Source: Longimicrobiales bacterium
GTDB taxonomy: Bacteria; Gemmatimonadota; Gemmatimonadetes; Longimicrobiales; Gaopeijiaceae
Assembly: GCA_965238005.1 (NCBI GenBank)
Contig: OZ250165.1
Coordinates: forward strand, 704,001 to 768,000
Reading direction: 5' to 3'
Length of the DNA stretch: 64,000 bases
The first letter of the stretch is position 1. Every line of letters starts with the position of its first letter. The position numbers and the translations under genes are program-made. Below, in pieces: positions 35,257 through 54,563 of this stretch. Under the pieces are notes generated by a model. That model did not search any database. It saw only the letters and a list, made by a program, of their open reading frames with translations, and had not been told where the DNA came from.

Positions 35257-35259
35257 GCC

Positions 35260-36444: not shown

Positions 36445-36637
36445 GTGGTTAATCCTACCTGTGTATCATATATCGACGGATACACCATGGTACAATACGG
36501 TACGTACCGGCACAAGAGGGAGCCTGTAAACACGGCTAGGATATGCCATATCACATTGTAATAACACGCTTTACGGAATACTATGGGACCGCAGGGGACG
36601 ATGTTCGCGATCATACTGCCGTACTTGTGGCAAAAGT
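36445..36637. other. att end of the int3 element
   Basis: Homologous to 53229-53420; core ACTT-GTGGCAA-AAGT at 36623-36637. Confidence 0.8.
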
Positions 36638-37163
36638 CGCCCTTGACCTCGAGCACCAGGGCACTGGCCCGGCGCCCGGCGCGGTCGGCTTGCCACGAGA
36701 GGAGCTGCTGGGCGAACGGGTACATGCAGGCGGTGGTCTTGCCGGTGCCGACGGCGCCGACGACGAGGACGCCGGTGTAGAGCCCTGTCTCGGGAATGAC
36801 GAGCCAGGAGGGCCGCTCGCTCTCTCGCGGGACGACGGGATGGTGCAGCTCGCCGATCACGAGCGAGGGTGCGTCGTCCTCGGGCGAGGCGGGCCAGGCG
36901 GGGAGCCCGCCCCGGCCGCCGCCCCTTGCGGGCGGCTGAAGCCACACCCTCCAGACCGAGAGGCACACGCTCCCGGCGAGGACGACGACGATGGCCGGGG
37001 CCGCGTAGTACCAGACGCGGATCACGGTGTGAAGGCCCGGATCGTGGTAGGCGATGAGGTCCAGCACGGGGTTGCCGCCCATGCCGGGGAACGGCGCCCG
37101 GAAAGCGTGGCCGGCGGCCGCTCCCAGAGCGGTGCCGATGATGGCGAGCGTAGCCGGCCTCAT
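36624..37163 (-). pseudogene. virD4: 5' fragment of type IV coupling protein
   Basis: N-terminal TM segments, Walker A GAVGTGKT, LVLEVKGDFC; cut at the int3 core. Confidence 0.85.
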
Positions 37164-37198
37164 CGGTCCAACACCCTTCCTGGAAGGATCGATGGCTC

Positions 37199-37286
37199 GG
37201 GAGCGACCCCAGGAGGGCGGGGGCAGGTGCGCAAACACACCTGGTCCCGAACCCGTACCAGGCCCTCGGACTGGGGGGTCGCTCCC
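37199..37286 (-). repeat. Structured non-coding module type 2, copy B
   Basis: Same 12-bp IR and inner motif as 30244, between the MIAHL gene and virD4. Confidence 0.85.
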
Positions 37287-37461
37287 GTCCCGGTCAGTGC
37301 TGCCCGTGCGGCGCTGACCGACCCGGCCGCGTAGGCGTAAGACGTTGCCGTGTCGTGGCCTACACCGCAGCAGCGGCGCGCATCGCCGGAGGGCCAAAGT
37401 GCGCATCGGCCCCCCGCGTCGTTTGCGCACTCCAGTGCGGCCATGAGACGCGCGCCGGTCG

Positions 37462-37915
37462 TCACCGGTAGCGCGCTCCCGCGAGGCGCACCGTTTGCCA
37501 GGCGACGCCGCGGTGAATCGCCCCGCGGCCTGCCTGCCGGCGGGCCTGCTTCTCCAGCGCCACGCTGCGTTTCAGGGCGGCTTGCAGGCCTCCGAACTCC
37601 TCGAGGATCTGGATCGCGCCCTGAAGGATCGCCCGCTCGATCCGGGCAAGTTCCTCACGGATCCCGGCGTCGGACTCGCCGGGGCCGGACGCCTCAGCCC
37701 AGCCGCTCATCACGGCCAGGGCCCGGTCCATCTCCCGCGAAGTGCGGGCGACGGCGACGACCTCGACGGACCGGCCTTGGTTTTCGAGCGCGTGCCAGAG
37801 CCCGCGGTGCGCCGCTCCCCAGGAACGGAGCGCGGTCGAGGTGTCGTGTCCGGGATCGACGTAGACGAACACTGCACGGCCCGAGTCCAGTGCGACCGGC
37901 AGCTTGAGCGGGAAG
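37462..37915 (-). pseudogene. 3' half of the split MIAHL-family ICE gene
   Basis: FPLKLPVALDSGRAVFVYVDPGH..WGAAHRGLW..GGLQAALKRSVALEK. Confidence 0.9.
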
Positions 37916-38191
37916 CAGGGATCAATCTTCGCAAGTCCCGATGGGACAACGACTTGGCAGTACCTTGCGAGAGACGTGTATCACTGGGTGTGTGCGAAGA
38001 TCGTAAATCGTGTTACCCGTTGGGTTTAGGACAGAAACCCACGGACCACGGACCCACGGATGGGCGGCCTCGAGCGCAACAAACACGAGTCCAAGAAGCA
38101 GAGGGCCGGGAGAGGCCCCGTGGGGAAGACGGCGGTCGGCCCGAGGGCCTGGTACGGGCGCGGGGCCGTGCGCGTCTCCCTAAAGGCAGCC

Positions 38192-38204
38192 TAACTTATT
38201 GATA
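38192..38204 (-). promoter_or_regulatory. IHF binding site
   Basis: TATCAATAAGTTA matches the consensus WATCAANNNNTTR exactly. Confidence 0.6.
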
Positions 38205-38539
38205 TAGATGCATATTAGGATCTTCGCCATTTGATGATGCCCCCATAGCCCTGATGCGGTCCGTCGGGGCGAGCCGTGCCGTTGCCTCGCCGTGCCGGCC
38301 AATTGTCGTGTCAAGAGAACCGGAGGCCGGACCGGTGCGCAACGTGAGCCAGGCCGGAGTCACGGCCACGCCAGATCAGATCGAGATCCCGACCGACCGG
38401 TAGTCGCGCCCTATCTCCAGAGTGACGCCGCCCCCAGGGTCCCGGCCAACCGGCTCCCGAGGGCCAGCGCGTAGGCGAGTTTGGCATCGAGGCGGGTCCA
38501 CTCGCCAGCCTCGGACTCACGGACTCCAGGAAACCTGAT

Positions 38540-39015
38540 TCTACTGCCAGTCACGCTGGAGGCCGAGCGAGCCGTCTTCGTCAACGTCGACCCGGAGCAT
38601 CCGGCACAGTTGCTTCTCCTCGAGCTGCTTGCCAATCCATTGGAAAACACGAACGGACCGGTTTCCTCCACGGCACGTGTGCCGTGTCGAGAACCTCCAT
38701 GGTGCGGCCGCACAGTGGGACCCGGTGCTCGCGGTTCGCCTTCGTCTGCGAAGCCGGTCCACACGGTCCACACACCCTCGTTCCGATCGATCTCGTTCCA
38801 CTCCGCTCCAGGAATCTCGTCGCCGTCGGCACCAGGAACTCGAGTCCGCAATGGACCAACGTGCCCAAGGAGCAGGAGGGAGCGGAGAAAGCCGCCGGTC
38901 CGATGGCGGAGACGACCGCTCCTCGGTAGACCCGCGAGGGCAGGTACCGGCGCTCGATGCCGGGAGCCTCGAATGCGGCAACCTCCTCCGGTTCGGTCGG
39001 GAGCCACGGCAGCCG
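38540..39015. pseudogene. Scrambled remnants of a MIAHL-family gene and a P4-type integrase
   Basis: Plus strand LPVTLEAERAVFVNVDPEH (38540-38600); minus strand LEFLVPTATR..KANREHRVPL (38610-38850); minus strand LPWLPTEPEEVAAFEA..LPSRVYRGA (38905-39015). Confidence 0.75.
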
Positions 39016-39041
39016 TTAGCACCTACAAACTATTGGATCTC

Positions 39042-40901
39042 TCAGCTCACCGTGGAGATGCGCGTGCTTTCTGAAGTTGTCGAGTTGTAAGTGGCCGAGA
39101 GGCCCGCAACATGTACGACTGGTTTTCCCATTGCCTTCTCGATTAGGCAACTCAGTCGCCGTCGTCTGTCTTCGAGAAAGTCGTTGAACGCATCCGCCCG
39201 GAGGAGTTCCGGCGAGAGGGCGTGGCTCGCAAGCAGATCATTCATCGCAACGTCGTCCAGTGCCACCTGCTTCTCTGCTTGGATTCTCGGCAGGTATCGG
39301 GAGGGGGCGTCGCCACCAATCTTACGATTGGCCTTGTAGGAAATCTGCGTCTTGTTGAGGATGCTATCGTATTGACCTTGGTCAATGTCCTGCTGATCCG
39401 CGCACCATTTCTTGGGGAAGATGTGGTGGATATCCAATGCGATTTCGTTCGCATCTAGCTCCTTGATAGTGGCCTTCCAGAACCAATCTTTGGAGCCTTC
39501 CCGCAGAACTAGCACATTAATGCCTTTGTAAGCTGCGCTCAGGCGTGTGCGCAGGGTGTCGAAACGCTCCGGTTGGAAATTGGCGTCGCGCACCGTGCGC
39601 GGAAGTGCGTCCTCATCGTCGAACCAGGCGAGCAGTTCATCGTAGTCGTTAGCCATGCGGGTCTCCACTGCACCGCCATAGAGTTCTCCCAGCACTCCAG
39701 ACCAGAACCAGCGCGCTAGCTTGTCGTAGATCCGCGGCTCAAGCCAGCGGTCGCCCAAGCGCGTGAGCACCGCTGCCAACGGAATGACTTGGGTGCTGTA
39801 GGGCAGCTCACGCCGGTGGTAGAAGCACTCTTTTTGCAAGAACCGGGCGGCATTTAAAAACCCCGCCTCCAGCATGTCGGCCCATCGTTTCCAAGCGTCC
39901 AGTGGTAGCCTAAGGACGTCGGCACGCTTGCCGCTGACCGGACGCACCTGCTTCCCGGTCTTACCGGCCCGTAAGTCTGCCTTTCTCAACTCGTGCGTAT
40001 GCAGCAGACTGATTCCTTGGAGGAACTCCGTGGCCTGAATGCCACTGAGGAGAACGTGGCCCTCCAGTCGTTTCTTCCGTGACTCAGCCTTGCGCGCCCT
40101 GGAGCCGAACCAGTCGTCCCTCAGGTTATAGCCCTCCGCTGCGTAGCTAGCGGTGACCAGTTCGAATACGGTAAGCGGCTCCCCACCGGTATTGACCTTC
40201 TCGAAGACCAAGCAGACCGCTTCCTTGGTGGTCTCTTTCTCCAACTGGATTACCGGGATTTGATAGTTGCGGAAAGGCTTAAGAACTTGGTTCCGAAACG
40301 CCATGTAGATGCCAAGCTTATCCGGCACCACCTCGTACAACGTCGTCTCCCAATCGTCGGAGTCCATTATCTGACTGCAGGGGAAATAGAACTCCCGGCA
40401 TTCCAGCTCGGTCGTGGCCAGATCTAGCTTCACATCGCGGCCGAAGTTGGTGCGCAGTTGCCTATTCTCATCGACAGCTATCACCGCCTCGTCGAGCGCG
40501 TGAGGGGTATCCACAGCTTTCCTGATATCGAAGTAGTAGTGGCGCTTTATCCTTGTGCCCTTGGCAGTCCTAGTGCGTACCGGCTCGTCAAGTGAGATGG
40601 CTTGGGTCAGGGTCGTGAGACGCTGCTGTCCATCAAGGATCAGTCTTTCCGGCGCCCGGTCCTTAGGTATCCTGTCCTCCAATCCTTCCACCGGACGGGT
40701 CTGGAAGCGAATCTCGCCACCGGCTTTGAGCAGCATTACCGCGCCTATCGGGAACGATCGACCAATGCTGACGAGCAGATCGCGAATGTGGTCGTCGTCC
40801 CAGACCCAGCCACGCTGGAAGTCTGGCAACTGGATCTTTCCTTCCTTGATTTCTCCCAGAAGTTGGTTTAGCGAAGCTTTGGTGCTGTCGAAGGTCGTCA
40901 T
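39042..40901 (-). CDS. GmrSD-like type IV restriction protein (DUF262 plus HNH)
   Basis: LPDFQRGWVW, LDGQQRLTT, FEKVNTGG, DIHHIFP..N..N. Confidence 0.9.
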   Translation of the reverse strand: MTTFDSTKASLNQLLGEIKEGKIQLPDFQRGWVWDDDHIRDLLVSIGRSFPIGAVMLLKAGGEIRFQTRPVEGLEDRIPKDRAPERLILDGQQRLTTLTQAISLDEPVRTRTAKGTRIKRHYYFDIRKAVDTPHALDEAVIAVDENRQLRTNFGRDVKLDLATTELECREFYFPCSQIMDSDDWETTLYEVVPDKLGIYMAFRNQVLKPFRNYQIPVIQLEKETTKEAVCLVFEKVNTGGEPLTVFELVTASYAAEGYNLRDDWFGSRARKAESRKKRLEGHVLLSGIQATEFLQGISLLHTHELRKADLRAGKTGKQVRPVSGKRADVLRLPLDAWKRWADMLEAGFLNAARFLQKECFYHRRELPYSTQVIPLAAVLTRLGDRWLEPRIYDKLARWFWSGVLGELYGGAVETRMANDYDELLAWFDDEDALPRTVRDANFQPERFDTLRTRLSAAYKGINVLVLREGSKDWFWKATIKELDANEIALDIHHIFPKKWCADQQDIDQGQYDSILNKTQISYKANRKIGGDAPSRYLPRIQAEKQVALDDVAMNDLLASHALSPELLRADAFNDFLEDRRRRLSCLIEKAMGKPVVHVAGLSATYNSTTSESTRISTVS

Positions 40902-41217
40902 GCTGACATGTCCGTCTCGTCGAGTCTCTCGGTTGGCCAAGCGGAACGCGGTCGGTCGGGATTACCGATTCGGTCCGCGCGTGGATATGACTCCCGAATC
41001 TTGAACACTCCACCATTGTGAAGGTGACCTCCGGGAGCGGGTACTCGTGTGGTGAGCTTCCCAAGGCGCCGGTGGTCGACTCCGGACGGGATGCGATCCC
41101 CAACGAATCGTAACAGGGATCAGGACCGGAAGGGAGCCTTGGCGGTCCCACACCTGACGCCGCCCGCTGTAGCAACAATTGATACAGGTATTGCCGTAGG
41201 TAGTGGGTCAGTTTCAA

Positions 41218-42066
41218 TCAAACGAAATTCGGGGGCAGTAATTCCTCAATCTTCCAGACCCGATCCGTCAGACCGGCAGCCTTGGCCGGGGTCGTTTTGA
41301 TCCCACCCGCCTCCTTGGTCAGCGTCGTGTGTGCCTTGCAGAAATTATAGTACATGAAGTGAAGCGCCACGGCATACTGGTGGAACTCGACCGTCTTGCT
41401 GAAGGCATTCGTCAGGCGGGTGAACCGGCGGGAGTGCATCCGCAGCGTGAGGTTCGATCGCTCGACATGCGACGTGCAAGTGTCATTCAGGGCGGGGTTA
41501 CCCATAACGCGCTTCTTCTCGGACCCGAGGCATACGGGCGGGCTGTACCGGCGCTGATCTTCGGAGCTTTGGCCGTAGGCCTTCACCACCGTTCCGTAGT
41601 CTGCCCCACCCCACCCAAACGCTCGCTCTACGGCTCGCGGATAGACCCCGTGACCGTCAGTGGAGAGGTGGACTCGGCTCACTAGGCGGTCGGCCAGATC
41701 CTGCATGAACGGCAAGCCGGTCGCAGCTCCCCTGCATCCGACGCGGTAGGCGATCAAGAGCTTTGTGTCCCGGCAGAGCGCTGTCCACGTCCACACGTCT
41801 CCGCGACCCTGGCCCCTTTCTTCCTTTGGGATGTTGCGCTCTTTCGCCCCACAGAACGACCAGATTTCATCGCACTGTACGCGCTCGGACTCCACACCCC
41901 TTACGAGAGCGTCGTGCTGCTCCATGCAATACGCGCCCACGTTCTTGAGCAACCGAGAAACGGTATTCTTGGAAGTGCCGGTAAGGCGTGCGGTGGCCCG
42001 GATCGAATTGCCCTCGACCAGTGCTTTGAGGATCATGGCCCGCTTTTCGTCGCTCAGTTTGTTCAT
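41218..42066 (-). CDS. IS1-family-like DDE transposase
   Basis: HTH EGNSIRATARL; QCDEIWSF, STDG, TSHVERSNLTLR, RRFTRLTNAFSK. Confidence 0.9.
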   Translation of the reverse strand: MNKLSDEKRAMILKALVEGNSIRATARLTGTSKNTVSRLLKNVGAYCMEQHDALVRGVESERVQCDEIWSFCGAKERNIPKEERGQGRGDVWTWTALCRDTKLLIAYRVGCRGAATGLPFMQDLADRLVSRVHLSTDGHGVYPRAVERAFGWGGADYGTVVKAYGQSSEDQRRYSPPVCLGSEKKRVMGNPALNDTCTSHVERSNLTLRMHSRRFTRLTNAFSKTVEFHQYAVALHFMYYNFCKAHTTLTKEAGGIKTTPAKAAGLTDRVWKIEELLPPNFV

Positions 42067-42159
42067 CGGTAGCCCCTTTTGCTACCCCAATATATGCTTG
42101 ACCGCTCAAGTAGTCAAGCAATATAGTGGCTCACTTCTAGGTTCTGAGGTTACTATAGA

Positions 42160-42933
42160 ATGATGGATAACACCCTGACCCTGACCCTGGCCCTTGACGG
42201 GCAAGTAACCCTTGATGATTTCGCAAGGGCTATCAGCCGTTTTCACGGCATAGTTGTGGCATTATCTAGGGATATCCCCGGCACCGAAACGATTACCTGG
42301 GAAGTGTCAGACCTTCAGGTCGGAAGTGCTATTGCCGACGTGACGGGACATGGGCCAAGCTCCGATGTTGAGCTGGTTGTTCGAGAATACGAACGGCTGG
42401 GCGAGGAATTGGAAAGGCGCGGACCACTCAACTTCTCTCCCGCCGTCCAAGCGGAAGCAAGGGGCTTAGTGGAGCTCATTAACGGTCGCATTGAAGCTAT
42501 TCGCATGGAGACAGCGCACCAGGATCATTTAATCGGAGGCGGCGAACTACCCGAAGTCGGAGTACCTGAGGTTCTAGAGTTCCCACGTTCGGCCCTTGGG
42601 GCGATCCAGGGCACCATAGAGACCCTATCTCGCCGAGGGGGGCTGAAGTTCACCCTTTACGACTTGATGCACAAGCGAGCGATTTCCTGCCACCTCCCAC
42701 CGGGAAGCGAGGGCGTGATGAGGGACGCCTGGGGAAAGAATGCAACCGTACATGGTATCGTGCGGAGAGACCCTGCGACGGGGCGACCAACCTCCATCCG
42801 CGAAGTCTCCAAGGTGGAAACCGTTCCCGAAAGCGGGCCAGGAGATTGGCGACTGGCCGAGGGTGCCGCAGTTCGTCGCCCGGGCGACGAACTGTCCCCC
42901 GAAGATGCGATTCGGCTGATCCGGGATGCCTGA
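42160..42933 (+). CDS. Uncharacterised partner of the PIN toxin (putative large antitoxin)
   Basis: 257-aa ORF overlapping the PIN gene by 8 nt; beta-rich C-terminal half; tail LSPEDAIRLIRDA. Confidence 0.7.
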   Translation: MMDNTLTLTLALDGQVTLDDFARAISRFHGIVVALSRDIPGTETITWEVSDLQVGSAIADVTGHGPSSDVELVVREYERLGEELERRGPLNFSPAVQAEARGLVELINGRIEAIRMETAHQDHLIGGGELPEVGVPEVLEFPRSALGAIQGTIETLSRRGGLKFTLYDLMHKRAISCHLPPGSEGVMRDAWGKNATVHGIVRRDPATGRPTSIREVSKVETVPESGPGDWRLAEGAAVRRPGDELSPEDAIRLIRDA

Positions 42934-43402
42934 CAGCCCACAACGCATCTACTGGGATGCGTGTGTCTTCCTGTCGTTTATTGAGGGACACCCCGACCGC
43001 TCTAAGGCGATTCGGACTTGGCTAGAAAAGGCGGAAAAGGGGAAGGTCGTGATCGTGACTTCCACCCTTTCAATTGTGGAAGTCGCATTTGGCAAGCAGG
43101 AAAAAGATCGAGGCGCGCTGATCCCGGAGGAGGAAGCCAAGATCAACCACCTTTGGACGCCTGAATCGCCCGTGGCGCTGGCTGAGTTTCACACAAGCAT
43201 AGCGCTTGAGGCCCGACGTTTGATGCGGGATGCGATGGCCTCGGAAATTGGGCTGAAACCGGCAGATGCGATCCACCTGGCGACGTGCCGAAACTTGGGA
43301 ATTGATGAATTTCATACCTACGACGGGAAGCTTGGCGGGGCCGCTGGAATTTCCCAACTCACGATTACCGAGCCCTCTCTTGAGCAGGGAGAGTTATTCT
43401 AG
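42926..43402 (+). CDS. PIN-domain (VapC-like) ribonuclease
   Basis: IYWDACVF, TSTLSIVEV, KPADAIHLAT, TYD. Confidence 0.88.
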   Translation: MPDSPQRIYWDACVFLSFIEGHPDRSKAIRTWLEKAEKGKVVIVTSTLSIVEVAFGKQEKDRGALIPEEEAKINHLWTPESPVALAEFHTSIALEARRLMRDAMASEIGLKPADAIHLATCRNLGIDEFHTYDGKLGGAAGISQLTITEPSLEQGELF

Positions 43403-44173: not shown

Positions 44174-47100
44174 CTACTGCGGCTTTCCACCGCCCAGGAT
44201 GTCATCCACATCGCGATCCCTCGCGCCAAGCACATCACGAAAACGAAGCCTCAGTTGCGCTGTGAGGCGCTTAAGACCAAGAGACTCGAGCACTGCCCGG
44301 AGATGGTCATCGGAGCCAGATTCGAACCCCTCATCTTGCGACAGCTGGCGTGCCATGAGCTGAAGCTCGCTCTGCGGAATCTCATTGAAGGTGCGGGGGC
44401 CACGCTCGCGAAGCACGGTTGCAGGCGTACCCGTGATGCGCACGATCGAGTAGACGAGGCCCCCGGTGCCGGACTCGTCCTCCTTGGCGACTCGACCTTT
44501 TCGAATGGCGTGCTGGAGCGCCCTGTTCATGGATCGCTTGAGTTCGCCACCCATTCGGGCGATGCCAATGCCACGCAGGTAGAGGTTGTAGGATCGCTTG
44601 GCTAGCATCGGACCCTCTGTATCGATGATGCGGCAAAGCCCTTCGGCAACCTGGGCGGGTGTGGAGTGCCGCGGGTCCGGGCCAGCTGGTCCCTCGAATG
44701 CGACGTAGGGTACCGCTCTAATTGGGACAGGCGTGACCGGGTCACGGTTTGTAGGCAGCGGCCGGTTCTCGGGATAGGAGGTCGGTTCCGGTTCCTCCTG
44801 GGGCTCGTCCATAGCCTCGGGGGCAGCCGGCTTCGGGTCAGTGCCGTGCGTGGGCGTTGGCGAGGCTTCGTCAGGGGAACGTGTAACCGTAGGTACCACC
44901 TCGATCAACTCAGGGGATGGCGGCTGACCATCCGAAGGCTTATCGAGATCGGCTTCCGTTCGCCTCTCCGGGCCTCTCGACTTCGGTCGCGGCGGGGCTG
45001 CGGCTGAGTCATCGATGCCGCCGGGCCGGATGCCGAGGCGATCGAGTTCTGCCCACACGGGCTCCATGGCCTTTTCGCGATCCCGGTAGAAGTCGCTACC
45101 CCGAATTCGGGCGAACTGCCAGCCCGCCCGCTCGAGATCGCGTTGACGCGCCACATCCTGCTCGTAGCGATCGGGGCCATGCCACTCGTCGCCATCACAC
45201 TCTACCGCCAGTCGCCCTTGCATGCCCTCGACGACCAGGTCGATCCGGTAGCGGTGATTCGCCGGGTCGCCCACACACACCTGAGTTCTCACGTGAAATC
45301 CGCGCTCGGTGACGCGCTGGTAGACATGCCGTTCGAACTTTGAGTCGAATCGCTGCTCTTCCGGATCGGTCCTCTTCCGCCCGGGATCGAGCATGTAGCT
45401 GAGGAGCGAATGACGCATGCACTTGTCGCTGAGCAAATCGAGCTCGGCCGTATGGAAGAGCCAGAGCTGGTCTTGGGCGCGGCTGACCGCAACGTTGAAA
45501 CGCTGTCGGGCCGCCTCGTTTGCGAGCACACCGATCCGGTGCTCTCCTGGAGCCGCGACCAAGCTCAGGAAGATCACGTTGCGCTCGTCGCCCTGGAACG
45601 CATAGGCATCGCCGCAAATGAGCCGCCGCTCCACAACCACCTCGGGATCGAGCGCCTGGAGAAGCATGTTCTCGATCAGCTTTGCCTGCGCCTCGCCCTG
45701 GAGACTGATCGCGCCCATGGTCTTGCCGGCGTAACGCGGGTCGTCTATGCAAGCGCAAATCTGCTCGACGATTGCCTCCGCTTCCGGCGGGTTCTGGGCG
45801 TGGTCGGCCTTTCCCCTGCGATATCCGTCAGGCACGTGCCGACGTACGAGTGGTTGAAGCCGACTGGCGGGGTAGGCACGCAGTGGATCGAGGGGCGTAC
45901 CGTTACTGGCGTAACAAAGGTCATTCGAGAACTGGATGATCTCGGGCATGCACCGAAAGTGCTCGCGTAGCACGATGTTCTGATTAAACCGGATCTTCGC
46001 GTTACCGTAGACGCTACTCTGCGGGTAGAGCGCGACCTTGTGCGGGACACCATCCAGAAAGTGCTGTTGCAGGGCAGCGACATCGGCATCGGGAATGCCC
46101 ACGCCCGCGGGGCTGATCTGCTGATCATCACCGACGACGATGATCTTCTTGGAGATATAGAAGAGAAACAGGCTCTCGATACCCAGCTGGCTGGCCTCAT
46201 CGACGATAACAAGGTCGTAGAGACCCGGCGAAGGGTCGATCATTTCGGCCACAAGATACCGCGGCATGATCCAAATCGGGATCGCCTTGCGGCAGTCATC
46301 CATGTAGTTGCGTGCCTCCCGCCTAAGACGTGCTATCCTTGCAGATTTCCCTGTGGCCTTGCCCATCGCGCGCACCGCCTCGCGCCAGCCTTTGAGCGCA
46401 TTGCGTTCGCGCGGGGAGAGGCGCTTGAAGAAGTCCTTCCAGGCCCGGAGGGAAGCAGCTTTTGCGACGCGTCCGCTCTTCGAAACCTCTGCCTCGTGAC
46501 GCCTTCGCCAGAGCTCCTGCTGGTAGTTGAAGTCGGACCGCTTCTTGAGCCAGCCGTCAGCCCACGCCCAGCGCCAGGCCTCCTCCCAATGGGAGAGCCG
46601 ATCATCCCAGACCGGCTCGTTGAGGCTTGCCTCGACTTCCTCCACCAAGCTAGGTGCAGCCAGCCTGATCGCGGTCTCGATTCGAGCGCGTTCCGACTGG
46701 GCCACCCGCGCCCGTTCGATCGCAACTACATGCTCGTGACATTGGCTGTAGGCTGTCACGTCTCGCGCGGCTATCGCCTCGAGGAGCGAGTCCACGACAG
46801 GGTGGACGTCATGCAGCCCGCGAAGTCGCGCCAGGGGCTGGCCGCATGCTGCGACTTGCCGTTCTGCCTCGTCCAGCTCCTCGTCGATGCCCGCGCCGAC
46901 GATGAGATCGACCCACCGCAGCGCTTCTCCATCGAGCCAGTTGGGCGTCGGGACCGGGGGGGACTTGCCGGACATGTTCTGGGCAGCGTGGGTACACGCG
47001 TCGCCGTATTCGAGTACATCCGCGAGGGCTGACACCTGCGGTTTCAGATCGAGGAGGCAGAATCTCCGGTCGGCCAGGGTATCAGTGACTCCTATGTCCT

Positions 47101-49462
47101 TCCAGAGGCTCACAAGATCTGCAAACGCGAACTCGAGGTCGAGATCATCGTATACCAAGTCCAGCTTCTGGACGTTGTCGGCGGGTTGTCCGTCGACCAG
47201 AACATCTTTCTTAAGATAGGTTCGTCCCTTGAGTGCTTTTGGCGTGACCAATCCAAGTAACTTCCACTTGCCACCGGCCTGGAGATGTTTGGCCGCGGCC
47301 GCCGCATCCGACCGCACTTTCCGAGGATCGAGCCCTTCGGGGCGGGTCACGACTCGATTGCCGAGACTACGCAACAGAGGCTCAATCTGCTCGATGCGCT
47401 GCCTGCTGAGCTTGAGCAGCGCACGCCACTTTGCGGTGCGACCTACGACCACCTCTCGAAGCGCTGTGCCCAACCACTCAGCCTCAACACCATGGAGAGC
47501 GCGCCGTCGCTCCTCGATGCTCCTGAGATCGTCGGCTAGATTATTTCTCTCGTCGGTCGACAAAGCGCGAATCGGCGAGAAGGCTGGGTGCGGTCGGAGC
47601 GCGTCCACCTGCTCGGTGCTGCGCGTTCGTGCTGTAGCCTCTTTCGAGACGATGCCCCCGAAGTCCGCCGGAGCAGTGAGAGTGGCACTGTCCGGGATCT
47701 GGAGTGTCGAGGCCGCGACCTCCTCGTCCGAGTACCGCCTGCGAATCTCCAGCCATCTGGCTGCCTCGGCATTCGAGATCGTCGGATGATTCGTCGCATC
47801 CCGTGCCAACCGGAGCCACCCAAAGATCTCGCGCTCGGCGGCGACCCGGGCTGCGATATTCGAGGCCGTGCCTTCGTATGTGCCATCGAGCAGCGGATGT
47901 GAGAGCGTCTCGTATTCGCGCAGGCTTCGGATCTCCGAGTCGATCCTGGCGAGACGCCTCCGGGCCTCGTCGATCTCACGATCGATCTCGACGATCCTGT
48001 CATCATATGAGCCCGGGGAGTATGAGGCTTGCCGGTTTGTGATTCCCTGCACGGCGGTGTTAAGCTCCGCGAATGCGTCTCCGCCGTGCCCAAGCAAGCT
48101 GACGCACAAGGGTTGGATTTCCTTAGGGAGCATGCGCTTGAGAACCTGGAGGGCGCGCCCCGTCTCCGCCGTGATGAGTACTCGCTTCCCCGTGGCGAGC
48201 AGGTGGCACATGAGGTTCGCGATGGTGTGGCTCTTGCCGGTGCCGGGTGGACCCTGAACCAGCACTCCTTGATTGCAGTCGATCGCATCGACGATACGCC
48301 GCTGCTCGCGGTTGGCCGGCAACGGGAAATAGGCCTCTGACGGTGACGGCGTGCTCCCACTATGCGTTCCATCGTGGCCATGGTGCCCCGAAGGCTTCCC
48401 ACCTCCATCTCCCCAGTCGTCATCAGTCAGCTCGCCCCAGCCGCGGGGCACTTCGCCTTCTTCGTCCTCAAGGTTCTGGATCAGTTTCTCGTAGATGCGG
48501 ACCATGCCAGTCTGGAGGCGTTTGCGAAGGATCAGTGCCGGCGCGAAGCTCATGACTGGGTCATTTCCAGTTGACGGCTTGGCGCTGAGTCCCTCGGACC
48601 AGACCGTGTCGGGGCTTAGTGCCCCCGCCCAGGTCTTGAGCGGAGCATGGATGAGCGACTTGTCCCAGATCGCGTCACCCACCTCCTCAAGCTGCGCTTC
48701 GACCACGTCATAGTTTGATCGATCAGGTCGGAGTTCGGCCTCGAGCATGTCGTCTTCGACACGCAGGTTCGCCCCTTCACCGGGGGCGCCTACGCGAATG
48801 ACGCCCCTGCCTGGGTCAAAGGTCAACTCGACCTGCCCGACCACCGCGTGCCGGCGAATCGGAATCGACTTATTACCGCTCTTAGCTCGCCAGTCCATCA
48901 GGCCTAGCCCGAGGACGACCTCGACGATCTCGCTCTGCTTTTGCAACTGCGAATAAAGACTGAAGAGCTTCGCATAGATGTTCTGCACCGCCTCGCGACG
49001 GCGATGGTCGGCTGCCCAGGCTTCCCACTTCGGCCGGAAGGCCCGATACGCCTCGACGACTTCGGGGTAGTCCTCCAGTGGTCGCTCGACGAGCGGCGGT
49101 GTCTCGCCCTCCTCCAGATCGAGTTCGGTATCTTCCTCGAGGATGCTCGGGCGCAGTGGCGTAATACTCGGAGTAGCCCTGCGGAGGACCTCTGCGTCGA
49201 CCCATTTCGCGATCATGTCGGGTGGCTCTGGCGGCCTCTCGAACTCCTGCTTGCGGACCTCGAGCCAGGGCTCTTCCAGATCGTAGTCGTCGGTCCAGGC
49301 ACCACTGTGGCAGTCCGCGTCTTGCGGCATCTCGTCGAACCAGAGCACAGAATCGTACTTGGCTACATCGCGAACGGTCGTACTGCGAAGACCAACGAAC
49401 TCTTTCAAGTACCGCGCGAGTCGCAGCGCGGGACTCTCGATGTTGTTACTGTCCGTGCTCAA
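44174..49462 (-). CDS. Large SF1 (DNA2/UPF1-like) helicase fused to a Vsr/DUF559-like nuclease and a wHTH-like tail
   Basis: QGPPGTGKSHTIAN, IVDEASQ, VGDDQQ, LREHFRC, FQGDER, RFNVAVSRA; FDSKFE..YRIDLVV..AVECDG..H..D..RQRDLE..GW; TTG start at 49462 inferred. Confidence 0.88.
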   Translation of the reverse strand: MSTDSNNIESPALRLARYLKEFVGLRSTTVRDVAKYDSVLWFDEMPQDADCHSGAWTDDYDLEEPWLEVRKQEFERPPEPPDMIAKWVDAEVLRRATPSITPLRPSILEEDTELDLEEGETPPLVERPLEDYPEVVEAYRAFRPKWEAWAADHRRREAVQNIYAKLFSLYSQLQKQSEIVEVVLGLGLMDWRAKSGNKSIPIRRHAVVGQVELTFDPGRGVIRVGAPGEGANLRVEDDMLEAELRPDRSNYDVVEAQLEEVGDAIWDKSLIHAPLKTWAGALSPDTVWSEGLSAKPSTGNDPVMSFAPALILRKRLQTGMVRIYEKLIQNLEDEEGEVPRGWGELTDDDWGDGGGKPSGHHGHDGTHSGSTPSPSEAYFPLPANREQRRIVDAIDCNQGVLVQGPPGTGKSHTIANLMCHLLATGKRVLITAETGRALQVLKRMLPKEIQPLCVSLLGHGGDAFAELNTAVQGITNRQASYSPGSYDDRIVEIDREIDEARRRLARIDSEIRSLREYETLSHPLLDGTYEGTASNIAARVAAEREIFGWLRLARDATNHPTISNAEAARWLEIRRRYSDEEVAASTLQIPDSATLTAPADFGGIVSKEATARTRSTEQVDALRPHPAFSPIRALSTDERNNLADDLRSIEERRRALHGVEAEWLGTALREVVVGRTAKWRALLKLSRQRIEQIEPLLRSLGNRVVTRPEGLDPRKVRSDAAAAAKHLQAGGKWKLLGLVTPKALKGRTYLKKDVLVDGQPADNVQKLDLVYDDLDLEFAFADLVSLWKDIGVTDTLADRRFCLLDLKPQVSALADVLEYGDACTHAAQNMSGKSPPVPTPNWLDGEALRWVDLIVGAGIDEELDEAERQVAACGQPLARLRGLHDVHPVVDSLLEAIAARDVTAYSQCHEHVVAIERARVAQSERARIETAIRLAAPSLVEEVEASLNEPVWDDRLSHWEEAWRWAWADGWLKKRSDFNYQQELWRRRHEAEVSKSGRVAKAASLRAWKDFFKRLSPRERNALKGWREAVRAMGKATGKSARIARLRREARNYMDDCRKAIPIWIMPRYLVAEMIDPSPGLYDLVIVDEASQLGIESLFLFYISKKIIVVGDDQQISPAGVGIPDADVAALQQHFLDGVPHKVALYPQSSVYGNAKIRFNQNIVLREHFRCMPEIIQFSNDLCYASNGTPLDPLRAYPASRLQPLVRRHVPDGYRRGKADHAQNPPEAEAIVEQICACIDDPRYAGKTMGAISLQGEAQAKLIENMLLQALDPEVVVERRLICGDAYAFQGDERNVIFLSLVAAPGEHRIGVLANEAARQRFNVAVSRAQDQLWLFHTAELDLLSDKCMRHSLLSYMLDPGRKRTDPEEQRFDSKFERHVYQRVTERGFHVRTQVCVGDPANHRYRIDLVVEGMQGRLAVECDGDEWHGPDRYEQDVARQRDLERAGWQFARIRGSDFYRDREKAMEPVWAELDRLGIRPGGIDDSAAAPPRPKSRGPERRTEADLDKPSDGQPPSPELIEVVPTVTRSPDEASPTPTHGTDPKPAAPEAMDEPQEEPEPTSYPENRPLPTNRDPVTPVPIRAVPYVAFEGPAGPDPRHSTPAQVAEGLCRIIDTEGPMLAKRSYNLYLRGIGIARMGGELKRSMNRALQHAIRKGRVAKEDESGTGGLVYSIVRITGTPATVLRERGPRTFNEIPQSELQLMARQLSQDEGFESGSDDHLRAVLESLGLKRLTAQLRLRFRDVLGARDRDVDDILGGGKPQ

Positions 49463-49844
49463 GCTGCGGCTCCGTAGACCTGATGCTGATGGATCTAGCT
49501 CTAGTGGTAGTGAGTGTCCCCGCCCATCCCGGTTTCGCTCTGCAGCTGAACCACCATAGCGTGAAGGGGCGGAGAGCTCATCTGAGGGTACGGTGGAACT
49601 GGAGGCCGGGGTACCATCTATCGATGGCCGAACACATTCCGTGCCAGATTCTGACCAAAATCTAATACACTTGACTGGAGGAGGCATCGGGGGGGCTCGC
49701 GACTTGGCTGATCTCCCGTTGGAGCGTGGGGCCGGGGCTGGAATCCGACCAAAGGCAGCCAGCGGCAGCGCTGATGCCGACAGGGGTTGGTGCCGCGCGC
49801 GCGAGTAACCGCTCTTGGGACGTCGTCTGGTTGGCCCATCGGTA

Positions 49845-49941
49845 CACCGACCTGTTCGGGCGCCGACACCGGGCCATGGACGACCGGGCAGCCTACTTGG
49901 CCGGTGAGCGTCGAGACCCGGAGGCCGGTCCGGTTCGTTGA
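49845..49941 (+). pseudogene. C-terminal remnant of a P4-type integrase
   Basis: TDLFGRRHRAMDDRAAYLAGERRDPEAGPVR* resembles the int3/int4 tails. Confidence 0.75.
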
Positions 49942-50783
49942 TCCGCCGCGCTCCCGGCGGCGTTCGCCGTTATTCGGTCACTCAGTTCGTCGAGGAACCC
50001 GGACAGGGTCAGGCCGAATGCACCAGCGAACCTGGTCGCCGCATCGACAGTCAGGCGCACTTCCTTTTTCTCCAATCGCCGCACATGCCTCTCTGATAGC
50101 CCCGGAATCTCTGTCTGCTTCAGCCGCCGATCATTTCTCATGTCAAGTAGGACCAGTGACATTTTCTCCATCTGGTACCGGCGAATTTCCACATCAGCCA
50201 GATACATGGGATCCACGGCCTGTAGCATCTGAGACGCACCCATATGTACATTCTGGTCAGGCCAATACAAATAGGAACCGGCCGAATCAATCACGAACTG
50301 GCTGAGCACTGCTGGCTCAAACCCTCTTACTTTCGGCAGTTGACTGATCGGAAACTTCCGTGCGCTCATGTCTCCAAGGACGGCAACGAGAGACTCCTCA
50401 ATGACATATGCGTCGAGGATGCCCTCCCACGGAGCCGGTCTCGTAAGCGCGATGACCAGACGTTTCACAACCGAAGGATCCCGGCACACTTGCAGCCGCT
50501 GATCCGGCTTATGAAGTCGAAGTGTCGAGGCGAGTCGAAGTATCGCCTGCTCCGGCACGTCTAAGACAACCAGGTAGCGTGTCTCCGTATCCACCCACTT
50601 CGGCAACCTGACTCGCTCCGGACCCATTAGCTCACTTGCTTGAGCCACGACCAGGCTCTGCTCTGTTCCAGTGTGGGGCGTCGTAGATAGCTGTCTCGCC
50701 AGAGAGCGAAACTCGGCGTCGGGCAAGCAATCTTCCACCGTCCCGCAAAAGGCAATGTGGCTGAATGGATTTGCGTCACTCAT
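49893..50783 (-). CDS. Extended DUF2442-like plus XRE-HTH protein (putative antitoxin/regulator)
   Basis: ILDAYV..LVAVLGD..FPISQLP..GSYLYWPD; LKQTEIPGLSERHVRRLE; ATGA coupling to the DUF4160 gene. Confidence 0.7.
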   Translation of the reverse strand: MSDANPFSHIAFCGTVEDCLPDAEFRSLARQLSTTPHTGTEQSLVVAQASELMGPERVRLPKWVDTETRYLVVLDVPEQAILRLASTLRLHKPDQRLQVCRDPSVVKRLVIALTRPAPWEGILDAYVIEESLVAVLGDMSARKFPISQLPKVRGFEPAVLSQFVIDSAGSYLYWPDQNVHMGASQMLQAVDPMYLADVEIRRYQMEKMSLVLLDMRNDRRLKQTEIPGLSERHVRRLEKKEVRLTVDAATRFAGAFGLTLSGFLDELSDRITANAAGSAADQRTGPASGSRRSPAK

Positions 50784-51037
50784 TCGCTCTGACTCCGCTC
50801 CCATTCTGCGAACAATTCCGCGCGGTGCGCAGCGGCCAGCTCCAAGATTTCCCTCACCTTGCTCGTGGAAACGTGTCTCACTTCAAACTTCACGTCATAC
50901 TGCGGAGGCTCCTGTAGGAAGTACACACGAATCTCCCACGCGTCCACGACTCCTGCGTGAAAGTGCGGCGGTCCGTGGTCACCAGTATGAAACCAAAATC
51001 GACACCCAGTTAGTTCAAACGCCTGAAGCAGCCCCAA
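50780..51037 (-). CDS. DUF4160-family protein (putative toxin)
   Basis: GCRFWFHTGDHGPPHFHA..ELFAEW. Confidence 0.8.
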   Translation of the reverse strand: MGLLQAFELTGCRFWFHTGDHGPPHFHAGVVDAWEIRVYFLQEPPQYDVKFEVRHVSTSKVREILELAAAHRAELFAEWERSQSE

Positions 51038-51065
51038 GAGCTACCTCCAGGTGAACGCGACAGCT

Positions 51066-51293
51066 TCACCCTTCCGGTGGGTAGGAATCGCGGCCATATG
51101 TGTTCTTCTCCCGAATTTTCCCATCACGTCCATGGATCAACAGCTCAGACCGTTGATTCTTCGCGATGGAGCGCGCCTTCTTGATGGCTTCCTGTTGCGT
51201 GTCAAATACTTTTGTTGCTTTCCGACTACCTGCACCCTTGACGGCCCATCCATCCTTGGCTGGGACAACGTGCTGGTTACGCTTCTTGGCCAT
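51066..51293 (-). CDS. DUF2188-family protein
   Basis: QHVVP..GWAVKG..TQQEAI..AR..IHGRDGKIRE..YG.D.YPP. Confidence 0.9.
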   Translation of the reverse strand: MAKKRNQHVVPAKDGWAVKGAGSRKATKVFDTQQEAIKKARSIAKNQRSELLIHGRDGKIREKNTYGRDSYPPEG

Positions 51294-51709
51294 GTGGTCT
51301 CCCTCCTCTACGCCTTATGCCGGACACGCAAATAGAGTAACCGCTATATTATGTCCGATCAAGGCATCAGAGGGCCTGCTGGGTCACCATCGTGCGGACC
51401 TCCGCACGTGTCTCACAGTGGAAAGTCGCTCTTGCAGCCTCATTCAAGACTGCTACCTCGGTTCGCAGCTCGTGTCGGCCAGAAACTCTGGCCACTGCTC
51501 GCCTGCTTCGCCATGTAGCGCCTCGACCCAGCTCCCCGGAGGGTGGTCTTGAAGGCCGACCGAGGAAGGTCCATGCCGATCAGGAGGCGCACTTCAGACA
51601 CTGAGGCGCATGTGCACCGGAGGGCTGTTTCCGGATGTGGTTGGTGTGACTTAAGTTACGGGATACCAGCACGAGCGGCCGGCCGTCTCTGATGGTCTCG
51701 GGGCAAAAC

Positions 51710-51801
51710 GGGAGCGACCCCCGATCTCGGCATGCCTCGATCGGCATCGGGGAGGGACGGCATGTGCACGCCATGCCACCCTCCCCGACGGGGTCGCTCC
51801 C
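51710..51801 (+). repeat. Structured non-coding module type 2, copy C
   Basis: GGGAGCGACCCC...GGGGTCGCTCCC; the next ~70 nt resemble 30334-30404. Confidence 0.8.
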
Positions 51802-51952
51802 GATCCATCAGTCCCTTACGGGAAGGCCACCGAGCGCCGCTGAGAGCGCGGCGGATCAACGGGCCGATCCGGCGATCAGCCGTCAGCGCACCGGCAGGGG
51901 GGCGGGGGGCGAGCCCCCGCCCGCGAGCTCCGCCGCAGTGCGGGCGTCCTTC

Positions 51953-52040
51953 GGGATCGAAGGGGCGGAGCCCCTCGCCAGCCCCTTTGTGGGTACAAAG
52001 GGTATGCTGGCTCATGACAGGTAACGGGTCATGAGCCAGC
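51953..52040 (+). repeat. Structured non-coding module type 1, copy 4
   Basis: GGGGCGGAGCCCC, CCCTTTGTGGGTACAAAGGG, and perfect GCTGGCTCATGAC-N9-GTCATGAGCCAGC (52006-52040). Confidence 0.9.
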
Positions 52041-52043
52041 GCC

Positions 52044-53228
52044 TCAGCGGACCGGTTTGGCCTCCGGTTCTCGACGCTCGCCGACGAGATACGCGCCCCA
52101 AGCCTCCATGACCTCGCGCCTCCGGTCTAGCAGGTCGGAACGGGCGTAGGCGGCCTCGACCTTGTTCTTCACGACATGGGCCAGCGCCGCTTCGGCCACC
52201 TCGCGCGCCACGCCCGTCTCCGAGCACCAGTCGCGGAACGAGGACCTCATCCCGTGGGGCGTTCCCTCGATGGAGAGACACCGGAGCAGGCCGCTGAACA
52301 TCGAGGCGTTGATTCTTCCTCCCTTCGCGCCCCGGAACACGAGCCCGCCGCCGTCGTGGCGCTTCCGGGCTTCCTCAAGGATCTCCAAGGCCCGCCTCGA
52401 CAGGGGAACTCGGTGCTCGCGCTTCGCCTTCATGCGGCTGGCGGGAATGGTCCAGACATCGTGCTCGATCTCATCCCACGTCGCGCCCCGGACCTCGTTC
52501 GAGCGTGTCGCGGTCAGGACCATGAACTCGAGCGCCAGCCGGACACCGGCATGGGATCCCGAGTCGCGGACCTCGGCCAGCGCCGCCGACACCTCGCCAT
52601 GCGGGAGCGCCTTGTGATGTCTGGTGGCGTTGCCGTTGCGCGGCAGCGCGGCGGCGATGGCGTCCCCCGCCGGGTTGTCCGGCCGGTAGCCCTTCGCGAC
52701 GGCCCACTTCATCACCGCGCCGATCCGCTGGTGCACGGCCCTCGCGGTCGCGGGCTTGCTTGACCAGATGGGCTGTAGGATCGCGAGCACGTCGGCCGTC
52801 GCGACCTCGCTCACGCGTTTGCGGCCGATGCGCGGATGGGCGTAGTCCCTCAGCGTCTGCCGCCACTGTCCGGCGATGCAGGAAGGGCTCTTCCAGGTCG
52901 GCGAATGGATCGCGATCACCTTCTCGACGGCCGCCTCGAAGGTGGGAACCCCCACGGCTCTCGGGTCGTGGCCCCAATGGAGCGCGCGCCTGTTCTCAAG
53001 CGCCTTCTCCCTCGCCTCCTTGAGCGTCACGACCGGATACGAGCCCAGTCCGAGATTGGTGGGCTTCCCTCCCGCTCGAACGCGCTGGCCCCAGGACTTG
53101 GAGACGCGCCCGGACTTCATTCGGTGGACGCGGAGGTACAGCCCGAGTCCGCCGCGCCCCCCGTCGCCGTAGCGTCCCGGCGTCGTCACCCGTGCCACGA
53201 AGGCAGCCGTAAGCGGTCGTTTACGCAT
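52044..53228 (-). CDS. P4-type tyrosine integrase (int4)
   Basis: Intact RSNEVR, HGMR, LAH and AAY motifs. Confidence 0.95.
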   Translation of the reverse strand: MRKRPLTAAFVARVTTPGRYGDGGRGGLGLYLRVHRMKSGRVSKSWGQRVRAGGKPTNLGLGSYPVVTLKEAREKALENRRALHWGHDPRAVGVPTFEAAVEKVIAIHSPTWKSPSCIAGQWRQTLRDYAHPRIGRKRVSEVATADVLAILQPIWSSKPATARAVHQRIGAVMKWAVAKGYRPDNPAGDAIAAALPRNGNATRHHKALPHGEVSAALAEVRDSGSHAGVRLALEFMVLTATRSNEVRGATWDEIEHDVWTIPASRMKAKREHRVPLSRRALEILEEARKRHDGGGLVFRGAKGGRINASMFSGLLRCLSIEGTPHGMRSSFRDWCSETGVAREVAEAALAHVVKNKVEAAYARSDLLDRRREVMEAWGAYLVGERREPEAKPVR

Positions 53229-53404
53229 GGAGTGTGTCCTACTTGTGTATCACATTCTGACGGATACACCATGGTACAACACGGTACGACTCGGCACAAG
53301 AGGGAGCCTGCGAACACGGCCAAGACACGCCGTATCATGTTGTAATCAAGTATCTTGTGGAATCCTACGGGACAGCCTGAGACGATGTGCACGATCCTAC
53401 TGCG

Positions 53405-53887
53405 TTACTTGAGCGGGAAGTAACGCCGCGTGTTCCCGGCGGCTCCCCGGTAGAGCCGGCTGGGCAGGTGCCGGCGCTCGATGTCGAGCGCCTCGAACGC
53501 ACGGACTTTCTCTTTCTCGGTCGGGAGCCACGGCAAGCCGGGGTGTTCGAGTACGTAGTCGAGTGAGAGGAGGCGCCGCAGGAGCACTTCCTCCGAACCG
53601 GTCCGGCGGTGGCGGATGTCCTCGGCGCCTAGCGCCCGGTAGATCCTGCGTCCGAAGATCCGGCAGACCTTCCGCCGCTCGAGTGTGTCCTCGGCCGCGA
53701 GCCCCCTCTCGAGCAGGGCCCGGACGAACCGAAGCGCCTGCCAGCGATCGATCCGGAGATAGGCGGAGATCTGGGCGCGGGTGAACACGCCGCTGTGCAG
53801 ACAGGCCAGCGCGATCCACTCGGCCTGGCGTCCCGTCCAACCGAACGGCTCGAGGGCCTGTTCGCGTCCCTGCAGATGCGCGATCAC
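53405..53887 (-). pseudogene. 5' half of the split MIAHL-family ICE gene
   Basis: MIAHLQGREQALEPFGW..RRYFPLK*; stop created by the element end; GTGA overlap with virB8. Confidence 0.9.
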
Positions 53888-54552: not shown

Positions 54553-54563
54553 GGATGTCTCCT

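Follow-up and report, generated by a model that had tools for sequence, protein, structure and literature searches.

Tn916 Int tolerates heterology and uses coupling sequences, and nested structures made up of ICEs (integrative and conjugative elements) with IMEs (integrative and mobilizable elements) are common in Firmicutes. According to the published reports, the attP site of Sa3int phages adapts to an alternative attB and then re-uses the new site better, a change watched in the laboratory by attP amplicon sequencing (PMC8649754); mv4 Int acts on a 7-bp overlap between two 7-bp inverted core sites, the composition of the overlap being free and identity between attP and attB mandatory (10.1101/2023.11.06.565760); recombination by IntDOT of CTnDOT tolerates heterology and involves coupling sequences (PMC2817482); and streptococcal IMEs, mostly with serine integrases and from Firmicutes, insert in the ICE genes traG (VirD4), maff2 and snf2 (PMC5357655). 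Here we analyze a stretch of 64,000 nucleotides (the window; positions 704,001 to 768,000 of contig OZ250165.1, assembly GCA_965238005.1) from a Longimicrobiales bacterium of the Gemmatimonadota, in which two closely related tyrosine integrase genes, int3 and int4, stand at the ends of genomic islands that interrupt two genes of an ICE, namely the gene of the type IV coupling protein (T4CP) and a gene that we call tgt4. We consider it likely that these islands, with lambda/P4-type heterobivalent integrases, lie in two adjacent ICE genes, that their targets are set by a matched 7-bp overlap and that retargeting proceeds by exchange of this overlap.

Junctions of the int3 and int4 islands

The features on which the argument rests are the following; coordinates without a prefix are those of the window.

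35260-36444, minus strand: int3, a tyrosine integrase of 394 amino acids (translation; Pfam)
36445-36626, minus strand: integrase-proximal (P') arm of the int3 island, delimited by the homology to the int4 island that ends at 36627; contains a copy of TGATACAC (36461-36468) and, as core half-site, GCCGTACTT (36618-36626)
36627-36633, no strand: 7-bp overlap of int3, GTGGCAA on the plus strand and TTGCCAC in gene sense, T4CP codons (F)CH
36634-36642, minus strand: T4CP codons G-D-F, the target half-site AAGTCGCCC
36634-37166, minus strand: N-terminal fragment of T4CP, about residues 1-190 (tblastn to full-length paralogues)
37462-37915, minus strand: C-terminal half of tgt4, of which 37462-37902 lies outside the 13-bp repeat (intact paralogues)
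37903-37915, no strand: distal copy of the 13-bp repeat (attR core), 7-mer at 37906-37912
37916-38070, minus strand: distal (P) arm of the int4 island; ends ...GATCCCTGCTT and contains TGATACAC at 37976-37983
52044-53228, minus strand: int4, a tyrosine integrase of 394 amino acids (translation; Pfam)
53229-53410, minus strand: integrase-proximal (P') arm of the int4 island; contains a copy of TGATACAC (53245-53252) and, as core half-site, GCGTTACTT (53402-53410)
53408-53420, no strand: proximal copy of the 13-bp repeat (attL core), 7-mer at 53411-53417
53405-53887, minus strand: N-terminal half of tgt4, of which 53421-53887 (residues 1 to about 157) lies outside the 13-bp repeat, its codons R-R-Y-F forming the target half-site AAGTAACGC at 53418-53426

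The core at int4 (53402-53426) reads GCGTTACTT-GAGCGGG-AAGTAACGC, a perfect 9-bp inverted repeat flanking 7 bp, and that at int3 (36618-36642) reads GCCGTACTT-GTGGCAA-AAGTCGCCC, with arms complementary at 5/9 positions as counted from the sequence (G plus ACTT/AAGT only). An earlier annotation made from the letters alone (the sequence-only reading) had quoted both cores, about 45 differences among 394 residues and a homologous stretch of some 180 bp before each core, and all three were borne out when the window was read and the loci were aligned. The two proteins are identical at 349/394 positions without gaps, which leaves exactly 45 differences; the DNA from start codon to core is homologous, and BLASTN aligned 35122-36627 with 51923-53411 at 87.9% over 1507 bp, the homology ending at the first base of each 7-mer. 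Within the window, TACTT-N7-AAGT occurs only at these two cores (three matches, the palindrome being counted twice, versus 0.05 expected), and none of 100 shuffles reached three matches; the core pattern is real and beyond chance. In the orientation of the window, the left 9-mer of each core belongs to the island and the right 9-mer (AAGT...) to the target. As judged from sequence, both cores are the integrase-proximal junctions (attL) of genomic islands, hence island/target hybrids.

The gene tgt4 encodes a 311-residue ICE protein without a Pfam or NCBIfam match above cut-off. It is split in the window after RRYFPLK, with residues 1-160 at 53405-53887 and the remainder at 37462-37915, and the two halves are contiguous, in the same frame and order, in intact paralogues (e.g., C1:869448-870383). 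Between the halves lies the int4 island, which starts at int4, measures 15.5 kb and is bounded by the 13-bp direct repeat CTTGAGCGGGAAG (37903-37915 and 53408-53420). T4CP extends from about 37166 to codons ...VKGDFCH at 36627, where the int3 arm begins; an intact paralogue encodes 689 residues with TrwB_AAD_bind and TraG-D_C above the Pfam cut-off (L095). Site-specific insertion that disrupts a conserved ICE gene was hence found both for T4CP (after KGDFCH) and for tgt4 (after RRYFPLK).

Both integrases contain Arm-DNA-bind_3 (PF13356), Phage_int_M (PF22022) and Phage_integrase (PF00589), all above the Pfam cut-off, and both frames are intact, with no stop across 394 codons. The motifs TATRSNE, MKAKREH, HGMRSSFRDW, ALAH and AAYARS are visible and conserved in the two proteins and may hold the catalytic R-K-H-R-H/W-Y residues. 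The sequence TGATACAC has three copies in the window, one in each proximal arm and one in the distal arm (0.45 expected), and is found in 14/14 proximal arms examined; its presence in both arms makes it a candidate arm-type site for the N-terminal arm domain. The distal arm of the int4 island is retained at 73-96% in 30 further distal junctions at other places and in other genomes.

Overlap, target choice and proposed mechanism

Junctions were collected from a search of relatives, from a phylum sample (10/401 genomes at E up to 1e-150; the top four candidates scored per genome) and from a family sample searched with arm DNA (13/314 genomes matched; two candidates scored per genome). At least 22 attL junctions of the int3/int4 type, from 15 genomes, were obtained, with these targets:

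T4CP gene, after KGDFCH: 10/22
tgt4, after RRYFP(L/V/I)K: 8/22
transposase gene with HTH_21, rve and rve_3 (Pfam), after IDFYN, presumably IS3-like: 2/22
MmeI-like methyltransferase gene, motif GSGNF (Pfam): 1/22
elsewhere: 1/22

The island side reads AAGTAC... in 15/22 and AAAT... in 7/22, and ACTT stands exactly 7 nt before the island arm in 18/22, the exceptions being L002 and L004 (spacing of 6 nt), L072 (ATTT) and L075, which does not fit. Distal-arm searches gave 31 attR junctions, where the arm ends ...GATCCC(T/G)GCTT and CTT directly precedes the 7-mer in 30/31; the sequence that follows is tgt4 (14/31), T4CP (11/31), the IS3-like gene (2/31), a recurrent CACGGCC site (2/31) or another sequence (2/31). 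The other target half was not found within 20 kb for the distal ends of L002, L003, L012, L018, L069 and L070, nor was the C-terminal half of the MmeI-like target in G005 found by a PF20473 search. Both ends are available for eight pairs (attL 7-mer / attR 7-mer):

G000 (int4), in tgt4, 15.5 kb: CCCGCTC / CCCGCTC
G001, in tgt4, 10.3 kb: CCGGTA / CCCGGTA
G167, in T4CP, 9.2 kb: CTGCCAC / CTGCCAC
G367, in T4CP, 6.3 kb: CTGCCAC / CTGCCAC
G275, in tgt4, 15.9 kb: CCCCCTC / CCCCCTC
G647, in tgt4, 8 kb: CCCGGTA / CCCGGTA
G647, in the IS3-like gene, 24 kb: CTACAAC / CTACAAC
G473, in T4CP, 66 kb: CTGCCAT / CTGCCAT (rare allele)

In 7/8 pairs the 7-mer is the same at both ends and equal to the native target sequence, so that the overlap forms part of a direct repeat of 9-13 bp. 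Target halves were confirmed to be consecutive for G001, G167, G367 and G275, and small inverted remnants are present inside the G275 and G001 islands. At tgt4, where the far target flank happens to be AAG too, 13 bp are identical from end to end; for T4CP and the IS3-like gene the figure is 9-10 bp, namely (C)TT plus the 7-mer. The far flank at T4CP is natively CAGG, AGCG, GCGG or GACG, not AAG. These limits place the crossover within TT plus the 7-mer, as the sequence-only reading had parsed it, and the cleavage positions are predicted to lie inside this stretch. Empty T4CP sites, from paralogous ICE copies, read GGCGACTT-CTGCCAC-(CAG/AGC/GCG/GAC)G..., and the six in this genome have CTGCCAC or CTGTCAT at the overlap position; empty tgt4 sites read CGCTACTT-CCC(G/C/A)(C/G)T(C/T)-AAGCTGCC. 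The 7-mers of occupied sites, found in empty sites too, are therefore native target sequence. The anatomy of the junctions, the direct repeats, the constant arms and the match of overlap to target are thus visible in the DNA itself.

That the repeated 7-mer is always target sequence would also be expected of target-site duplications, arising from staggered cuts and repair in the manner of a transposase, rather than of a shared overlap. We regard this as most improbable: the island ends have no recombinase other than a tyrosine integrase, accompanied by conserved arms and inverted half-sites, and insertions occur at only a few sites, with ACTT and similar 7-mers in common, a restriction that a duplicating transposase would not need.

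A tree was built of 21 integrases of the int3/int4 type, L129 (200 residues only) being left out. The int3 clade (SH-aLRT 95) comprises seven proteins 95.2-100% identical to int3 that occupy four different genes: T4CP three times, the MmeI-like gene once, tgt4 once and the IS3-like gene twice. The six members of the int4 clade (SH-aLRT 99) are all in tgt4, and a third clade has five members in T4CP, one in tgt4 and one elsewhere. The overlap goes with the target, being CTGCCAC in T4CP, CCCGCTC-like in tgt4 and CTACAAC in the IS3-like transposase gene; the two main overlaps (CTGCCAC and CCCGCTC) differ at 4/7 positions, and the tgt4 7-mer itself varies among close kin (CCCGCTC, CCCGGTA, CCCGATA, CCCCCTC). 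In genome G647 there are two islands, with integrases at 97.2% and 95.2% identity to int3, whose half-sites are the same (CCCTGCTT ... AAGTACAGC) but whose overlaps differ (CCCGGTA versus CTACAAC); therefore, protein and arms do not decide the target. The tree and the junction survey agree with the sequence-only reading in that close paralogues use one CTT-N7-AAG design with different 7-mers. An invariant overlap and a single target gene per integrase subtype, which would have spoken against that view, were not found, as evidenced by the four genes occupied by integrases at least 95% identical.

That reading went further and had the flanks choose the target while the overlap is free. An integrase tolerant of heterology, like those of Tn916 and CTnDOT, would accept any overlap and find its targets through the CTT/AAG flanks only, hence its promiscuity. 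Consistent with such tolerance, integrases at least 95% identical to int3 are in four genes with four 7-mers, the tgt4 7-mer varies among close kin, one pair is unlike at its ends and 6-base spacers exist; IntDOT is a precedent for relaxed identity (PMC2817482). We nevertheless hold this to be unlikely, because 7/8 pairs repeat one 7-mer at their two ends, in each case that of the native target; the 7-mers of secondary sites are similar to the main ones (CGGCCAC, CCCGCCC and CTGCCAT each depart from a main allele by one mismatch); the far target flank at T4CP is not AAG; and this genome, with one copy each of int3 and int4, retains six T4CP sites and seven tgt4 sites that are empty. Its constant flanks and variable overlap therefore stand, whereas choice by flanks alone does not sit with the 7/8 pairs that match the native target and the 3/5 secondary sites near a main allele. 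When attL/attR pairs were aligned, as had been proposed as a check, the flanks were constant and the overlap varied between elements but matched each element's own target, and so was not free. Unrelated overlaps would keep the target's version at each end only about half the time after replication; the 7/8 identical pairs of native type hence indicate that an overlap match seems to be needed and that the overlap itself seems to be part of target choice. In the IS3-like gene, a target that came to light afterwards, the site has 5/7 overlap matches and the same GACTT arm.

Under the mechanism of matched overlaps, each junction consists of (i) a target half-site (...RACTT), (ii) a 7-bp overlap and (iii) an island half-site (AAGTAC...). 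The reconstructed attP is ...GATCCCTGCTT-N7-AAGTACGGCAG..., an imperfect inverted repeat CTT-N7-AAG, and the predicted circle joint of the int4 island would be ...GATCCCTGCTT-CCCGCTC-AAGTAACGCAG, with one copy of the 7-mer. Inverted half-sites around an overlap of 6-8 bp are accordingly present in the reconstructed attP (...GCTT-N7-AAGTA...). The putative core half-sites have a consensus of about RCTT, comprising G(C/T)(G/T/A)ACTT on the target side, (T/G)GCTT and TACTT in the island, and the far target arm of tgt4, AGCTT. The integrase would bind these half-sites and cut about 7 bp apart, and exchange would be completed only where the 7 bp of attP and target are identical, such that the overlap plus the ACTT half-site selects the target. 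New overlaps may arise through rare integration at a look-alike secondary site, after which the target's overlap would be carried into attP at excision. From the sequences we infer the cleavage positions, the need for overlap identity, this route of retargeting and current activity.

A bolder version, which we put forward only tentatively and think somewhat doubtful, is a site-specific recombinase that naturally reprograms itself: a single protein (at least 95% identity), its arms unchanging, would aim at ACTT plus the seven bases currently in attP and rewrite these at near-matches. This could have driven a radiation to more than 20 paralogues per genome, each aimed at conserved codons of conjugation genes (e.g., Walker B, KGDFCH), and have led to nested defense islands that disable or ride the ICE. 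This 4.8-Mb genome has 21 full-length integrase paralogues (48-100% identity). Among 41 relatives, 11 have any match, with 45, 31 and 9 integrase matches in G001, G002 and G005, and most other genomes of the bacterial family are without this integrase family.

Mobility, cargo and surroundings of the islands

Several points weigh against the reading of mobile islands with matched overlaps. The ends of the G001 pair differ by one base (CCGGTA versus CCCGGTA), and 6-base spacers occur at L002 and L004 (attL) and at L133, L137 and probably L040 (attR); the latter may go back to loss of one overlap base, to scars left by recombination between mismatched sites, to subsequent mutations that froze the islands, or to errors of assembly. 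The 24-kb (G647) and 66-kb (G473) pairs are known from their ends alone, junctions from kin genomes are non-independent events, and the resemblance of secondary sites (3/5 within one mismatch of a main allele, chance 0.021 per site, P ~1e-4) was expressed by a statistic defined after the data had been seen. In the first four genomes, 7/9 distal junctions are orphan arms with no integrase of the int3/int4 type within reach (G000 C1:693355-693507 and C1:498882-499040; G001 C4:450768, C1:389279 and C3:169622; G002 C3:297561; G005 C12:58445). An integrase of 53% identity is 13 kb away from the arm at C1:498.9 kb, which shares only a 5-bp match with the junction of that integrase; because of this location, the distal arm may be common to several integrase subtypes. 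No excisionase (Xis/AlpA-like) open reading frame was recognized among the eight small frames adjoining the integrases. For the excised circle, no joint of about 53.4 kb to 37.9 kb was present in assembled contigs of four public runs over 36000-55000, and the attP pattern TGATCCCKGCTT-N7-AAGTAC gave 17 matches in public genome contigs, about the number estimated for chance, with nothing relevant in the one that was read. The two ends of the int4 island may stem from two insertions into the same kind of site, because an older remnant, in which a tgt4 fragment (38917-39012) is fused to an integrase fragment (38680-38856), is located near its distal end (38680-39012, minus strand; tblastn and sequence). 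Finally, the distal end of the int3 island was not detected, there being no copy of the distal arm left of int3, and int3 may be an immobile relic.

Related searches yielded the following. The one match to the attP pattern that was read, in a Gemmatimonadetes metagenome-assembled genome, had neither arm around it, and public metagenome contigs had 0 matches for the attP pattern and 0 for the P' arm. A contig joint of 37869 to 53762 in X10 (side 25) looks like an intact paralogue and not an exact empty site. Two candidates for the missing end of the int3 island were set aside: the match to CTTYTGCCAC at 7846-7855, the only other exact one, is without the arm, and the C-terminal T4CP fragments at C1:701317-702165 and 710038-710574 are on the opposite strand and belong to other insertions. 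To the left of int3, 5 kb away and facing it, lies an inverted ICE fragment (about 29134-30312, plus strand) with a third tgt4 paralogue and the T4CP leader, which suggests that a deletion or inversion removed the distal part of the int3 island; what is left of this island is probably a truncated relic, no larger than about 6 kb.

One could extend this to all of the islands and regard them as immobile relics, their junctions copied along with duplicated or transferred ICEs, or by flanking homologous recombination, so that they would record a few ancient events and not present-day site choice. The 8-10 or so partial or whole copies of the host ICE genes in this genome, the abundance of remnants, orphan arms and rearrangements in the region, the missing distal end of int3 and the likeness of junctions within one target gene across genomes are consistent with this view. 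Still, the arms recur in five or more unrelated genes, a distribution that homology of the flanks cannot explain; the islands vary in size (6.3, 8, 9.2, 10.3, 15.5 and 15.9 kb); allele-specific 7-mers match at both ends; and both integrase frames are intact over 394 codons without a stop. We think it improbable that relics account for the islands as a whole, and retain site choice by the matched overlap.

The cargo of the int4 island and the adjoining ICE genes are as follows (Pfam):

39042-51293, no strand: cargo of the int4 island
39042-40940: GmrSD-like gene
41218-42066: IS1-like transposase
42926-43402: PIN protein
44174-49687: helicase of 1837 amino acids with an MTES_1575 nuclease domain
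50780-51037: DUF4160 gene
51066-51293: DUF2188 gene
54564-62232, minus strand: conjugation genes of the host ICE, namely TrbL/VirB6, TrbI/VirB10, CagX/VirB9, a VirB4-like ATPase, VirB3, TrbC/VirB2 and AlpA

The int4 island is a defense island, with restriction-like and toxin-like cargo. No relaxase families turned up in general scans of the cargo frames, a search aimed at relaxase or oriT not having been made. The ICE transfer module lies to the right of int4, and intact paralogues elsewhere continue with tgt4 and then T4CP. By its gene content, the host element is an integrative and conjugative element of the type IV secretion system type, in which tgt4 and T4CP are adjacent genes. No tRNA gene was found within the 64-kb window. 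Adjoining the AlpA end of the ICE is an open reading frame of 394 amino acids (62548-63732, plus strand) with several CxxC pairs, a GC3 lower than that of its neighbors and no Pfam match.

A further integrase, int1 (4725-5885), belongs to a 7.9-kb island with junctions at C1:702.17 kb and 710.03 kb. It lies antisense in the Walker B codons of T4CP (CDEYQAF) and is flanked by a 9-bp direct repeat, CTGGTACTC, common to both junctions. The sequence-only reading was mistaken in assigning GTA-N7-TAC to int1, as the junctions stay identical to the native gene only up to a point within the CTCCTTC spacer that this would require. There are three identical copies of this integrase, the others at C1:329265 and C1:2109991, and one of them stands in another flank, with CTGGTACTCC in common. 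Immediately beyond the left edge of the window (C1:700900-701320; L097), the 3' end of an unrelated tyrosine recombinase (...GWHSLRRKFASDLM...LGGWKT...) abuts a T4CP fragment that starts near residue 237, so that no fewer than two different insertions are present in the same T4CP copy.

Other paralogues were observed at other positions. At i4 (C1:2733964), the upstream flanking gene ends ...IVVGEVRGGEAADLLQALNTGHGGSL in our own translation, and we take it to resemble a secretion ATPase of the VirB11/CpaF type, cut at the conserved His box. Three ICE copies have a divergent paralogue (i10, i9 and i13; C1:840815, C1:2751589 and C1:2835666) directly upstream of the start codon of T4CP; this subtype is either the ICE's own integrase or another type of island that uses a site at the 5' end of T4CP. 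Between the int1 and int3 regions, a Mutator-family transposase gene (15241-16401, minus strand) has a Pfam match, and a second frame of 394 amino acids (13467-14651, plus strand) is similar to it by eye. The region 22752-27400 holds an McrBC-like pair, AAA_5 ATPase (22752-24017) and McrBC (24395-25732), followed by an MmeI-like gene. The truncation of the latter (25668-27320) was considered as an island junction and rejected, since its methyltransferase domain breaks after motif I (FDPACGCGNF...) by an internal deletion or frameshift.

Comparison with known systems

The islands are most like elements with lambda/P4-like integrases (Arm-DNA-bind_3/DUF4102), with which they share the three domains, inverted half-sites around about 7 bp, long arms with a common repeat and a direct repeat at the crossover, whereas the targets here are codons in protein genes of a mobile element and not a tRNA gene. 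The half-site RACTT resembles the core-type consensus of lambda, CAACTT, and the CTT-N7-AAG spacing is tighter than that of lambda. The site-affinity mutants of lambda, 'saf', are, besides the Sa3int phages, a further precedent. A search of the literature on Gemmatimonad* integrative and conjugative elements with integrase gave, judged by title and abstract, none on such elements.

If the proposed mechanism is correct, a lambda-type integrase would change its target gene in natural genomes without a change of protein or arms, through the 7-bp overlap of attP only; retargeting of this kind has so far been documented mainly in the laboratory (Sa3int phages, mv4 libraries). The four targets of integrases at least 95% identical, several with both ends available, offer a set of substrates on the sufficiency of the overlap plus a 4-5-bp half-site, which bears on programmable tools. 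Islands with defense genes accumulate inside the conjugation genes of resident ICEs in this lineage, and should block ICE transfer until they are excised.

The likenesses to the systems of the four reports, and the differences from them, are as follows. The Sa3int phages show integration at a look-alike secondary site followed by uptake into attP, which is the route that we propose for the series CTGCCAC, CCCGCTC and CTACAAC; here, it would be read from fixed natural variants in 15 genomes, in which whole 7-mers differ. mv4 Int differs in that it belongs to the Tn916 family, targets a tRNA gene and was reprogrammed with synthetic libraries, not naturally. The integrases of CTnDOT and Tn916 are likewise tyrosine recombinases acting at many sites, with differing sequence between conserved half-sites, but there the sequences at the two ends are unlike, whereas 7/8 pairs here are identical and equal to the target. 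Like the streptococcal IMEs, these small islands disrupt conserved conjugation genes in a site-specific manner, including that of the coupling protein; unlike them, they have tyrosine integrases, reside in a Gemmatimonadota genome and, in the case of int4, carry restriction-like and toxin-like cargo. Overall, the mechanism is an ordinary one, both of its principles having already been published, and the value of these islands lies in an unusually clear natural series.

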